Assembly (NCBI RefSeq): GCF_003334385.1
Contig: NZ_QOWN01000055.1
Length of the DNA: 30,907 nucleotides
Reading direction: 5' to 3' (one strand)
Origin: Escherichia coli
Lineage (GTDB): Bacteria; Pseudomonadota; Gammaproteobacteria; Enterobacterales; Enterobacteriaceae
A model generated the notes under the pieces. That model ran no database searches. It had not been told where the DNA came from and was given only the letters and a program-made list of their open reading frames with translations. This document shows, in pieces, positions 3,182-27,086 of the stretch. Position 1 is the stretch's first letter. The number at the start of each line of letters is the position of its first letter. The translations under genes were made by a program, and so were the position numbers.

Positions 3182-4099
3182 ATGCAATGTGAATTTAAAG
3201 GGGTCATATCAGCATTACCCACTCCTTATGACCAATCCCAGCAAATCGATATGGAGAGTCTTCGAAAACTGATCCGTTTTAATATCGAACAAAATATTAA
3301 GGGATTGTATGTTGGAGGCTCTACTGGAGAAGCATTTCTTCAGAATGTTGCAGAGCGAGAAAAAATTCTTGAAACAGTAGCCGATGAATCAGATGGAAGA
3401 CTGACACTTATAGCGCATGTGGGCGGAATCAGTACGGCAGAAAGCGAGGTACTTGCAAAAGCTGCAAAAAAATACGGATATCATGCTATATCTGCTGTTA
3501 CTCCATTTTATTATCCTTTTTCATTTGAAGAGCATTGTATCCATTACAGGAAGATTATTGATTCTGCAGATGGACTTCCGATGGTAGTTTATAATATACC
3601 GGCTCTTAGCGGAGTGCGTTTTTCTTTAGATCAGATAAATGAGCTTGTCACAATACCCAGGGTTTGTGCATTAAAACAGACATCCGGTGATTTATTCCAG
3701 ATGGAACAAATCAAAAGGAATCATCCAGAGCTTGTGTTATATAATGGTTACGATGAAATATTTGCATCAGGGTTAATTGCAGGTGCAGATGGGGGAATCG
3801 GTAGTACATATAATATAATGGGGTGGCGTTATCTTGAAATATTTGAAGCAGTCAAAAACAATGATGTGATTAAGGCGAAGGAAATACAGGTAGCCTGTAA
3901 CCAGGTTATTGACACTCTTATTCAGAGTGGTGTCCTGGCAGGTATAAAAACTCTTCTTTACTATATGGGGATTATAAATACTCCTGTATGCAGAAGTCCT
4001 TTTTCTCCGGTAAAGGAAAAGAATCTGGATGTATTATCAAAACTTGCAGAGCGACTGCTCGAAGAACATGACAGAAACAAAAAAATGAAAATAATCTGA
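3182..4099 (+). CDS. nanA: N-acetylneuraminate lyase (DHDPS/NAL family)
   Basis: 305 aa; alignable throughout with E. coli NanA as I recall it (~60-65% identity). GGSTGE motif, [10 protein letters not shown] (Tyr137 equivalent) and ALKQTSGD (Schiff-base Lys165 equivalent) are present. Confidence 0.9.
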
Positions 4100-4132
4100 A
4101 TAATTGCAAGATTGTTATATAGGTGAAAATGA

Positions 4133-5008
4133 ATGATAACACTGGCTGTTGATATAGGAGGAACGAAAATTTCAGCGGCGTTGATATCTGATGACGGTTC
4201 ATTTTTGCTGAAAAAACAGATATCAACACCTCATGAAAGATGTCCTGACGAAATGACAGGGGCTTTACGTCTACTGGTTTCTGAAATGAAGGGAACAGCG
4301 GAGCGATTTGCAGTAGCATCAACAGGGATTATTAATAATGGAGTATTGACAGCTCTGAATCCAGACAATCTTGGAGGGCTGAAAGAGTATCCTCTGAAAA
4401 ATATAATGGAAGATATAACTGGTTTAAATGGAAGTGTGATAAATGATGCCCAGGCAGCCGCATGGGCAGAATATACAGTTTTGCCAAAAGAAATTTGTGA
4501 TATGGTTTTTATAACCGTTTCTACGGGGGTTGGAGGGGGAATTGTAGTTAACAGAAAATTATTAACAGGTGTTTCTGGATTAGCCGGACATGTTGGGCAT
4601 ATATTGTCCGGAGTAACGGATACAGAATGTGGATGTGGTCGTCGGGGATGCGTTGAAGCGGTTTCATCTGGTCGGGCCATCATGGGGGCAGCAAAAAATA
4701 AACTTGCAGGATATAGCACCAAATATATTTTTGAATTAGCGAGACAGGGATATAAGGAAGCAGAATTTTTGACAGAGCGTTCTGCCAGTACTATTGCTGA
4801 ATTAATAGTAAGTTTAAAATTACTGCTTGATTGTCAGGTTGTTGTTGTCGGAGGAAGTGTTGGACTTGCTGATGGGTATGTTCAGAAAGTGTCGAAACAT
4901 CTTTCCATATATTCTGAAATTTGTAATGTAATGCTGTTTCCGGCATATTTCAGAAGTGACTCTGGTCTTATTGGTGCAACTCTTTGGGACCGGGATTGTA
5001 TTACTTAA
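4133..5008 (+). CDS. nanK: N-acetylmannosamine kinase (ROK family)
   Basis: 291 aa; N-terminal LAVDIGGTK ATP-binding motif; ROK zinc motif GHxGH...CGCGRRGCVE; collinear with E. coli NanK. Confidence 0.85.
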   Translation: MITLAVDIGGTKISAALISDDGSFLLKKQISTPHERCPDEMTGALRLLVSEMKGTAERFAVASTGIINNGVLTALNPDNLGGLKEYPLKNIMEDITGLNGSVINDAQAAAWAEYTVLPKEICDMVFITVSTGVGGGIVVNRKLLTGVSGLAGHVGHILSGVTDTECGCGRRGCVEAVSSGRAIMGAAKNKLAGYSTKYIFELARQGYKEAEFLTERSASTIAELIVSLKLLLDCQVVVVGGSVGLADGYVQKVSKHLSIYSEICNVMLFPAYFRSDSGLIGATLWDRDCIT

Positions 5009-5056
5009 AGTAATACTCCAGTGTATTATAAATCCGCTATTATTGTGAGGTTTAAT

Positions 5057-24923: not shown

Positions 24924-24945
24924 ATATAAATTATTCTCATTATTG
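24924..24945 (+). promoter_or_regulatory. Candidate Fur-binding site upstream of iha
   Basis: AT-rich NATWAT-type hexamers (ATATAAATTATTCTCATTATTG) ~50-70 bp upstream of the iha ATG; about 12/19 against the Fur consensus in the best register. Confidence 0.3.
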
Positions 24946-24995
24946 TTTGTATTTGTGTATTGTCTTGCCGGTTAACATGATCGGAGATTAGTAAT

Positions 24996-27086
24996 ATGCG
25001 AATAACCACTCTGGCTTCCGTAGTCATTCCCTGTCTCGGATTTTCAGCCAGCAGCATAGCTGCTGCAGAGGATGTGATGATTGTCTCGGCATCCGGCTAT
25101 GAGAAAAAGCTGACTAACGCAGCCGCCAGTGTTTCTGTGATTAGCCAGGAGGAATTGCAGTCCAGCCAGTACCACGATCTGGCGGAGGCTCTGAGATCAG
25201 TAGAGGGTGTGGATGTTGAAAGTGGTACGGGTAAAACCGGTGGGCTGGAAATCAGCATCCGAGGAATGCCAGCCAGTTACACGCTGATACTGATTGATGG
25301 TGTTCGTCAGGGCGGAAGCAGTGACGTGACTCCCAACGGTTTTTCTGCCATGAATACCGGGTTCATGCCCCCTCTGGCCGCCATTGAGCGTATTGAGGTT
25401 ATCAGGGGGCCGATGTCCACACTGTATGGCTCTGATGCGATGGGCGGTGTGGTGAATATCATTACCAGAAAGAATGCAGACAAATGGCTCTCTTCCGTCA
25501 ATGCAGGGCTGAATCTGCAGGAAAGCAACAAATGGGGTAACAGCAGCCAGTTTAATTTCTGGAGCAGTGGCCCCCTTGTGGATGATTCTGTCAGCCTGCA
25601 GGTACGCGGTAGCACACAACAGCGTCAGGGCTCATCGGTCACATCACTGAGCGATACAGCAGCCACGCGTATTCCTTATCCCACGGAGTCACAGAATTAT
25701 AATCTTGGTGCACGTCTTGACTGGAAGGCGTCGGAGCAGGATGTGCTCTGGTTTGATATGGATACCACCCGGCAGCGTTATGATAACCGGGATGGGCAAC
25801 TGGGGAGTCTGACGGGGGGATATGACCGGACCCTGCGCTATGAGCGGAACAAAATTTCAGCTGGCTATGATCATACTTTCACCTTCGGAACATGGAAATC
25901 GTATCTGAACTGGAACGAGACAGAAAATAAAGGTCGTGAGCTCGTACGCAGTGTACTGAAGCGCGACAAATGGGGGCTTGCCGGTCAGCCGCGGGAGCTT
26001 AAGGAATCGAACCTTATCCTGAATTCATTACTGCTTACCCCTCTGGGAGAATCTCATCTGGTTACGGTGGGGGGCGAGTTTCAGAGCTCGTCCATGAAAG
26101 ACGGAGTTGTCCTTGCCAGCACAGGTGAAACTTTCCGGCAGAAAAGCTGGTCGGTATTTGCTGAGGATGAGTGGCATCTCACGGATGCACTTGCGCTGAC
26201 TGCGGGCAGCCGCTATGAACATCATGAGCAATTCGGGGGACACTTCAGTCCGCGTGCATATCTGGTCTGGGATGTGGCAGATGCCTGGACGCTGAAAGGC
26301 GGTGTGACCACGGGATATAAGGCACCCAGAATGGGGCAGCTACATAAAGGGATTAGTGGTGTGTCCGGGCAGGGAAAAACAAATCTACTTGGTAACCCCG
26401 ACCTGAAGCCGGAAGAGAGCGTCAGTTATGAGGCTGGGGTGTATTACGATAACCCCGCCGGTCTGAATGCCAATGTCACAGGTTTTATGACTGACTTCTC
26501 CAACAAGATTGTCTCTTATTCCATAAATGATAACACCAATAGCTATGTAAACAGCGGAAAGGCCCGGTTGCACGGTGTGGAATTTGCCGGCACATTGCCG
26601 CTGTGGTCAGAGGATGTCACGCTGTCACTGAATTACACCTGGACCCGAAGTGAACAACGTGATGGTGATAACAAAGGTGCGCCGCTGAGTTATACCCCTG
26701 AACACATGGTGAATGCGAAACTGAACTGGCAGATCACCGAAGAGGTGGCATCATGGCTGGGTGCCCGTTATCGCGGGAAAACACCACGTTTCACCCAGAA
26801 TTATTCGTCACTGAGCGCTGTACAGAAGAAAGTGTATGATGAGAAAGGAGAATACCTGAAAGCCTGGACGGTGGTGGATGCAGGTCTGTCGTGGAAGATG
26901 ACGGATGCCCTGACGCTGAATGCTGCGGTGAATAACCTGCTCAACAAGGATTACAGTGACGTGAGCCTGTACAGTGCCGGTAAGAGTACGCTGTATGCCG
27001 GTGATTACTTCCAGACGGGATCATCAACAACAGGATATGTGATACCTGAGCGAAATTACTGGATGTCGCTGAACTATCAGTTCTGA
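24996..27086 (+). CDS. iha: TonB-dependent outer-membrane siderophore receptor/adhesin, Iha-like (IrgA homologue)
   Basis: 696 aa, the length I recall for Iha. Signal peptide; plug-domain motifs (AIERIEVIRGPMSTLYGSDAMGGVVNIITRK); C-terminal barrel ending NYQF. Confidence 0.8.
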   Translation: MRITTLASVVIPCLGFSASSIAAAEDVMIVSASGYEKKLTNAAASVSVISQEELQSSQYHDLAEALRSVEGVDVESGTGKTGGLEISIRGMPASYTLILIDGVRQGGSSDVTPNGFSAMNTGFMPPLAAIERIEVIRGPMSTLYGSDAMGGVVNIITRKNADKWLSSVNAGLNLQESNKWGNSSQFNFWSSGPLVDDSVSLQVRGSTQQRQGSSVTSLSDTAATRIPYPTESQNYNLGARLDWKASEQDVLWFDMDTTRQRYDNRDGQLGSLTGGYDRTLRYERNKISAGYDHTFTFGTWKSYLNWNETENKGRELVRSVLKRDKWGLAGQPRELKESNLILNSLLLTPLGESHLVTVGGEFQSSSMKDGVVLASTGETFRQKSWSVFAEDEWHLTDALALTAGSRYEHHEQFGGHFSPRAYLVWDVADAWTLKGGVTTGYKAPRMGQLHKGISGVSGQGKTNLLGNPDLKPEESVSYEAGVYYDNPAGLNANVTGFMTDFSNKIVSYSINDNTNSYVNSGKARLHGVEFAGTLPLWSEDVTLSLNYTWTRSEQRDGDNKGAPLSYTPEHMVNAKLNWQITEEVASWLGARYRGKTPRFTQNYSSLSAVQKKVYDEKGEYLKAWTVVDAGLSWKMTDALTLNAAVNNLLNKDYSDVSLYSAGKSTLYAGDYFQTGSSTTGYVIPERNYWMSLNYQF

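Follow-up and report, generated by a model that had tools for sequence, protein, structure and literature searches.

The stretch of DNA analysed here, a window of 30,907 nucleotides from Escherichia coli (contig NZ_QOWN01000055.1 of assembly GCF_003334385.1), carries a nine-gene sialic-acid (nan) cluster, the aerobactin locus shiF-iucABCD-iutA and iha, encoding a siderophore receptor and adhesin, side by side. With a probability of about 0.9, we read the window as an internal segment of the genomic island (GI) at pheV, GI-pheV, of the PAI-CFT073-pheV type (PAI, pathogenicity island) of extraintestinal and commensal E. coli, in which three independently acquired and independently regulated modules were brought next to each other by accretion and shuffling mediated by insertion sequences (IS). 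The linkage of nan, iuc and iha is already known: it has stood in public genomes since that of CFT073 and received explicit analysis in 2023-2024.

The gene order of the window is a truncated IS66-family element, a transposase remnant, nine sialic-acid genes, shiF, iucABCD, iutA, a 3.5-kb AT-rich stretch, iha and a complete ISEc43 (Table 1). A first-pass annotation made from the sequence alone had placed the nan, aerobactin and iha genes between IS66-family elements. These gene identifications proved correct, as evidenced by family scores and the annotation of an identical record, and the physical linkage was confirmed in place; indeed, every feature that it named was recovered at its coordinates with intact open reading frames (ORFs), according to ORF listing, family searches and the annotated identical record. 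Families were assigned with the curated cut-offs of NCBIfam, the bit scores being given in Table 1 where a model matched, and RefSeq annotation was borrowed from a public record identical to the window (UPEC-245U). The GC content is 0.395 in the nan segment, 0.53 in shiF-iutA, 0.385 in positions 21519-24995 and 0.52 in iha, and these steps at the module borders show that the block is a mosaic of separately acquired modules.

The pheV island and its relatives

The assignment to the island was made through the UPEC-245U/190328 chromosome, which is 99.9-100% identical to the window and identical apart from an 8-bp repeat. To the left of the corresponding segment, this chromosome carries IS66, hha, agn43 and yee/cbtA genes, followed by yghD and the gsp operon; to the right, ISEc43 is followed by IS66 fragments, sigA, an AAA protein, a tyrosine integrase and a tRNA-Phe gene by yqgA and speC (pheV). 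The island at pheV is approximately 81 kb long, and its tRNA-Phe and tyrosine integrase are located about 14 kb past the right end of the window. A GI-pheV is marked by integration at tRNA-Phe (pheV) beside a P4-type integrase; the identical chromosome has this tRNA-Phe and the tyrosine integrase, outside the window. The modules of such an island are represented by nan, iuc and iha in the window and by agn43 and yee/cbtA in the flanks of the identical record, with sat absent. Between the window and pheV, UPEC-245U has sigA together with a companion gene similar to the neighbour of sat in CFT073 (positions 3106-6963 of the extracted locus L009). The presence of sigA means that the sat-less island still carries a related serine-protease autotransporter toxin.

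The modules themselves are published. The intP4.1-type GI-pheV of CFT073, UMN026, EC958 and others has been described as a mosaic of IS-separated modules, among them 'shiF_iucABCD_iutA_sat', an 8,905-bp 'nan', flu and yee, alongside iha and pap, and whole-module deletions have been reported in sequence type (ST) 131 (PLoS Genet 2024; PMC11537424). In ST1193, flu and the nan operon lie downstream of iha (PMC11488385), and the review PMC7545054 holds nothing on the nan module. The uropathogenic reference strain CFT073 (NC_004431.1 3448776-3479522) has the same order as the window, nanA to nanS, shiF, iucABCD, iutA, sat, IS66, IS3 and iha, with an identity of 99.3% over window positions 2708-22217 and 99.6% over 24506-27660; PAI-CFT073-pheV also shares the left context (hha, a Gp2-family gene and IS66) and the flu and yee modules of the identical record, and an O6:K2:H1 strain has the same module order. 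Relative to CFT073, the window is without sat, the 582-bp gene that accompanies it, IS66 and IS3 between iutA and iha, where it keeps 2.29 kb of a type found in enterohaemorrhagic E. coli (EHEC) with the gene for the small RNA (sRNA) Esr41. It also has ISEc43 inserted downstream of iha, and the identical record has sigA and not pap towards pheV.

The ST131 GI-pheV of the EC958 type has, in a span of about 38 kb of one island, the same nan cluster (99.7% identity) together with modules for aerobactin, sat and iha, in the order nan, IS3, iha and an inverted sat-iutA-iucDCBA-shiF, so that the junction of nanS and shiF is broken at window positions 12141/12143. The ST131 order shows that modules are shuffled within the island. 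From the breakpoints that these islands share, the sat-less form is probably the older, and the CFT073 and ST131 forms would have derived from it by gaining sat and IS elements.

Prevalence was assessed among 5,426 complete E. coli genomes by counting those that cover at least 80% of a query in one place; Shigella genomes were outside the collections searched. The 24.2-kb block at window positions 3000-27200 is colinear in 98 genomes. About 15 of these match its full length at 99.5-100%, with sources (human, wastewater, surface water and birds) that span several continents, and about 80 more differ mainly by the sat/IS insertion. The nanS-shiF-iucA junction (a 2.8-kb query) was found in 108 genomes, including the O6:K2:H1 strain, and the 9-kb nan module by itself in 689 (12.7%) at an identity of at least 99%. 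An IS-rich region is a common cause of misassembly, which might turn the arrangement into an assembly artefact or repeat chimera, but the end-to-end matches of at least 99.5% come from independent complete genomes of different laboratories and continents, and together with the larger group that differs mainly at sat/IS they leave this explanation a negligible chance.

The suggestion of the first-pass annotation that nan-iuc-iha is an undescribed island variant is contradicted by these counts for junction and block, by the CFT073 order and by the published modules (PMC11537424, PMC10088187): comparison with the genome collection and synteny with CFT073 show the identical arrangement to be common and annotated already. 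Its premise that no nan module stands beside shiF-iuc was wrong for the CFT073 PAI, in which nan adjoins shiF, and right for ColV-type plasmids. ColV/ColBM plasmids and SHI-2-type loci share shiF-iucABCD-iutA with its Fur-controlled promoter, but the plasmid homology, at 92-99% identity, is limited to window positions 12161-21667. A nan module is absent from the aerobactin loci of these plasmids and is not known from SHI-2; iha is usually missing as well, one 172-kb plasmid type carrying both iuc and iha.

IS elements and mobility of the block

The nanA-to-iha block lies between two IS66-family elements that share one orientation, and IS elements around the nan cluster have been suggested as a possible aid to its horizontal exchange (PMC10088187), so the block might be a composite transposon moved as a unit by this pair. 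The two elements are 77-86% identical to each other. The terminal repeat of the left one, ...GTTTACGCTTAC, ends at position 2609, while its tnpC end is cut near 276-292 by another IS; in the identical record this tnpC is annotated as 'missing C-terminus', with ISEc45 adjoining. The right element, ISEc43, has an 8-bp target duplication of its own, CCATTTTG, on either side (27653-27660 and 30193-30200). Such a pair of duplicates around ISEc43 indicates that it inserted independently, as a simple insertion downstream of iha, and does not mark where a composite transposon ends; with this identity between the copies and a truncated left outer end, the window does not have the related IS pair with a duplication at the outer ends only that such a transposon would show. 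A further IS66-type end begins at position 30305.

The surroundings of the block point in the same direction. UPEC-245U, the O6:K2:H1 strain and ST131 have one and the same left context (hha, a Gp2-family gene, zinc-ribbon genes and IS66), whereas the right context varies among pheV islands (sigA, ISEc10 with pap, or the order as rearranged in ST131). No plasmid carrying at least 80% of the 24.2-kb block was found, and an origin of the whole block from a plasmid was rejected on this ground; a 36-kb record labelled as a plasmid, CP088636.1, matched 42% of the query in three pieces, nan genes included. With the left side conserved, the right side variable and no plasmid copy, the unit was not seen intact in unrelated contexts, and a composite transposon is very improbable. 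The 'one mobile segment' bounded by IS66 that had been proposed for the block is unsupported in view of the separate duplication of ISEc43, the divergence of the IS pair and the one-sided constancy of the context. Under the island reading, the linkage would be inherited with the whole island and would not move as a discrete IS66 transposon.

Table 1 Features of the window, with coordinates, strand and the basis of each assignment (strand cells are empty where none applies; K-12, percentage identity to the K-12 protein).
Feature	Coordinates	Strand	Basis
Left IS66-family element (tnpA 2095-2520, tnpB 1748-2098, tnpC ~293-1717)	~276..2609	-	ORFs, homology limits, annotation
Candidate operator for the island NanR, TGGTGTACTAGGTATCCCAT (GGTGTA-N3-GGTATC)	3133..3152	+	30-49 nt upstream of the nanA-like start
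N-acetylneuraminate lyase, NanA paralog	3182..4099	+	NCBIfam NF003164, 449.5 bits (cut-off 281); K-12 66%
N-acetylmannosamine kinase, NanK paralog	4133..5008	+	NF003461 (subfamily model), 420 bits (cut-off 283); K-12 53%
Sialate:H+ symporter (major facilitator superfamily, MFS), NanT paralog	5057..6529	+	NF003024, 829 bits (cut-off 604); K-12 66%
Alpha/beta-hydrolase acetylesterase 1, putative sialate O-acetylesterase	6533..7363	+	PaeX/AxeA1-like, under their cut-offs
KdgM/NanC-type outer-membrane channel	7409..8119	+	K-12 NanC 61%; RefSeq annotation of identical record
N-acetylneuraminate mutarotase, NanM paralog	8132..9241	+	NF010730, 498 bits (cut-off 416); K-12 44.5%
Alpha/beta-hydrolase acetylesterase 2	9291..10226	+	PaeX-like, under cut-off
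GntR/FadR-type regulator, NanR paralog	10262..10996	-	NF003011, 273 bits (cut-off 260); K-12 52%
Sialate O-acetylesterase, NanS paralog	11096..12082	+	Annotation of identical record; K-12 56%
Junction of nan-9 and shiF-iuc modules	12141..12143		Homology to ST131 stops exactly here
shiF, MFS transporter	12240..13433	-	Annotation of identical record; divergent from iucA
iucA promoter, TTGATA-17-CATAAT	13506..13534	+	Overlapped by Fur box GATAATGAGAATCATTATT, 13508-13526
iucA (13569-15293), iucB (15294-16241), iucC (16241-17983), iucD (17980-19317)	13569..19317	+	Annotation of identical record; family-level matches
iutA, TonB-dependent ferric aerobactin receptor	19323..21518	+	Annotation of identical record; TIGR01783, 638 bits
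IS remnant starting with IS66-type end GTAAGCGTCGTC...	21749..22217		Seam between aerobactin and iha modules
AT-rich stretch upstream of iha, 2.29 kb, EHEC (SpLE1/tellurite-adherence island) type	22218..24505		Genome comparison
Esr41 sRNA gene	22914..22987	-	Rfam RF02676, 108.6 bits (gathering score 102), full length (model 1-74)
Esr41 promoter	-35 TTGACA 23022-23017, 17-nt spacer, -10 TTATAT 22999-22994	-	Sequence
Perfect 8-bp tandem repeat, CTACGAAA x 9 (Esr41 strand)	23041..23113	-	Lies upstream of the Esr41 -35 box, its end 18 nt from it
iha, bifunctional catecholate-siderophore receptor and adhesin	24996..27086	+	NF010012 equivalog, 1618 bits (cut-off 924); annotation of identical record
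ISEc43 (IS66 family), complete with terminal repeats	27661..30192	-	Annotation, repeat ends

The nan-9 and aerobactin modules and their junction

The nine contiguous sialic-acid genes at 3182-12082, in the order nanA, nanK, nanT, esterase, nanC, nanM, esterase, nanR and nanS, are distinct from the core sialoregulon, and their products are paralogs of the K-12 Nan proteins, with identities of 44-66%, and not copies of them. Such a nine-gene cluster was named nan-9 and associated with the human host by Tiwari, van der Putten et al. (BMC Biol 2023; PMC10088187). The window agrees with it in gene content and gene order and has no nanE; no difference from the published cluster was found. The window contains nan-9 itself, and the figures agree as well (published similarity to K-12 of 45-64%; published prevalence of 12% among RefSeq genomes, chiefly those of ST131, ST73 and ST69, vs 12.7% in our collection). 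No NCBIfam model matched the NanS-like gene, the identity of which rests on similarity to K-12 NanS and RefSeq annotation. The two extra acetylesterases, for which the RefSeq annotation was used as well, are 37% identical to each other.

A tblastn search with K-12 NanE and NanQ gave no homologue of either in the window. The missing nanE means that nan-9 supplies the core nanATEK/nag pathway but is no substitute for it, in agreement with the published genetics: deletion of nan-9 delayed growth on Neu5Ac (N-acetylneuraminic acid) and on Neu5Gc (N-glycolylneuraminic acid), while deletion of nanRATEK abolished it, as nan-9 is without nanE (PMC10088187). Judging from homology, sialic acids would enter through the NanC-like channel, the NanM paralog would speed the conversion of anomers, the NanT paralog would import the sugar, and the NanA and NanK paralogs would cleave it to N-acetylmannosamine (ManNAc) and pyruvate and phosphorylate ManNAc, respectively. 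Core NanE would then be needed for the step after NanK, a dependence that is experimental in PMC10088187. The NanS paralog and the two acetylesterases may strip O-acetyl groups, acetylesterase function on O-acetylated sialic acids being put forward as a hypothesis in the same paper.

Expression of nan-9 is probably repressed by the island's own putative NanR. Searching the window for the K-12 NanR operator (GGTATA repeats) gave four matches against 1.5 expected, which is not significant alone. Upstream of nanA, the 20-nt block TGGTGTACTAGGTATCCCAT is a candidate operator of the cluster's own NanR; it took a comparison to make the search suggestive, namely with a divergent sibling cluster on plasmids, in which the block is kept exactly (positions 11773-11792 of the plasmid locus L010) between flanks that have diverged. 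This sibling, with the same nine genes, is carried by IncF plasmids (L010, NZ_CP063519.1 20376-29389, and about 19 others) from mouse, pig and human E. coli; its order is cyclically permuted (est2, nanR, nanS, nanA, nanK, nanT, est1, nanC and nanM), its proteins are 47-90% identical to those of the window at the amino-acid level, and its GC content is 0.41.

The nanS-like gene and shiF stand tail to tail, 157 bp apart, and a scan of the gap between them for terminators found none. The breakpoint at 12141-12143, where the low-GC nan module gives way to the shiF module, is common to all comparisons. In ST131, the nan side of this junction runs into IS3-iha; the shiF side is placed elsewhere in that island, at a distance of about 29 kb and in inverted orientation with respect to nan-9.

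The second module has the composition of a complete aerobactin locus: an iucABCD-iutA operon, a Fur box on its promoter and a divergent shiF. The Fur box, GATAATGAGAATCATTATT, deviates from the Fur consensus at two positions, and 0.01 such matches would be expected by chance. A search for Fur boxes with up to three mismatches returned the iucA site alone and none near iha. Fur regulates iha, and an AT-rich, Fur-like stretch is present upstream of that gene. In the proposed scheme, the Fur-repressed shiF/iucABCD-iutA locus would make aerobactin, export it with the aid of ShiF and re-import it through IutA, ShiF being described as an auxiliary aerobactin export factor (PMC6918656). The shiF-iutA allele (12143-22217) is of the CFT073/UMN026 type, with only 96.2% identity to ST131 compared to 99.3% to CFT073 over 2708-22217, and the 3' end of iutA with its downstream region (21001-22217) is 92% identical to ST131, in agreement with the divergence of iucD/iutA described in PMC11537424. 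At 21576-21619, about 60 bp past the iutA stop codon, a tandem repeat of a 16-bp unit, TTGTTTACAGCCAGTA x 2.8, was observed.

The regulators of these modules bear on the question of why they are adjacent. Selection could keep them together, with sialic-acid foraging and iron uptake co-inherited, or even co-regulated, as a gut and urinary colonisation cassette: nan-9 is human-associated and concentrated in extraintestinal pathogenic E. coli (ExPEC) lineages that also have aerobactin and iha (PMC10088187), the modules stay in one island in CFT073, ST131 and the window despite changes of order, and Waters et al. proposed that Esr41 was co-selected with Iha (PMC5286369). Each module, however, has its own regulator and promoter (the NanR paralog and the Fur box), and the convergent nanS-like gene and shiF are not expected to share a transcript. 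Single modules are lost in ST131 (PMC11537424), nan-9 occurs in 689 genomes compared to 108 with the direct junction, aerobactin without nan is found on hundreds of plasmids, and linkage within an island is predicted by hitch-hiking alone. We consider maintenance by selection unlikely. With separate regulators and convergent genes at the junction, the linkage is best explained by accretion and hitch-hiking, for which a shared function is not needed.

Several points weigh against this account of a pheV island assembled by accretion. The window stops short of pheV and the integrase, and its assignment to the island depends on the identical public record; the substrates of the esterases, the control of nan-9 by NanR and the function of Esr41 outside EHEC are putative; and the direction of change between sat-less and sat-containing forms is read from shared breakpoints only.

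Esr41 and the 8-bp repeat between iutA and iha

The IS remnant at the seam of the aerobactin and iha modules is common, over positions 21799-22217, to CFT073, ST131 and EHEC O157. The stretch that follows it in the window, 22218-24505, was found in 695 genomes, mostly of O157, O26, O145, O103 and O111, and is replaced in CFT073 by 9.15 kb comprising sat, the 582-bp gene, IS66 and IS3. A scan of the window with Rfam returned Esr41 as its sole match, in this stretch, between iutA and iha and 2 kb upstream of iha, as in SpLE1; the gene had been overlooked in the first-pass annotation. CFT073 and ST131 are without Esr41, the stretch being occupied by sat and IS elements. The EHEC island SpLE1 (O-island 43/48) of O157:H7 EC4115 matches window positions 21799-27668 (IS remnant, Esr41 and iha) at 95-99%, but there the block leads into ter genes, has neither aerobactin nor nan-9 as a neighbour, and contains the 8-bp unit upstream of Esr41 only once.

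In EHEC, Esr41 is an Hfq-dependent sRNA encoded on SpLE1 near iha that represses cirA, chuA and bfr, and the authors who proposed its co-selection with Iha call it EHEC-specific (PMC5286369). The Iha receptor/adhesin gene of the window is accompanied by that of an sRNA that in EHEC represses competing iron-uptake mRNAs, a role that is putative outside EHEC.

The 8-bp unit CTACGAAA varies widely in copy number, with nine copies in the window, 16 in UPEC-245U, 11 in SW070917, six in S1-KEN-03-A, five in DETEC-S792, four in G6/7 and one in O157:H7 EC4115. The flanks of the repeat are identical in all seven counted sequences, and the islands with 4-16 copies have an identity of at least 99.8% apart from it. 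The spans of matches, sampled in 60 genomes, suggest that most EHEC have a single unit. The difference between nine and 16 copies also means that the window is not the UPEC-245U record itself. The repeat is the only detail here that is possibly new: no published description was met, although no dedicated search for one was made. It could be a contingency locus that tunes the level of Esr41, a proposal that we regard as speculative and rather doubtful; in connection with it, the sat-less iutA-Esr41-iha junction may be the ancestral state of the pheV iron module of uropathogenic E. coli (UPEC).

As a discovery, the linkage of nan, iuc and iha carries little weight. Its analysis corrects a false premise on the CFT073 island and places the segment in the pheV island, not in a transposon. 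It also indicates that a minority, sat-less form of this island carries Esr41, held in the literature to be EHEC-specific, beside aerobactin in UPEC and commensal strains, together with a hypervariable promoter repeat. If the contingency proposal were true, and if repression of cirA, chuA and bfr by Esr41 holds in these strains, the repeat would set the share of iron uptake that passes through IutA and Iha.

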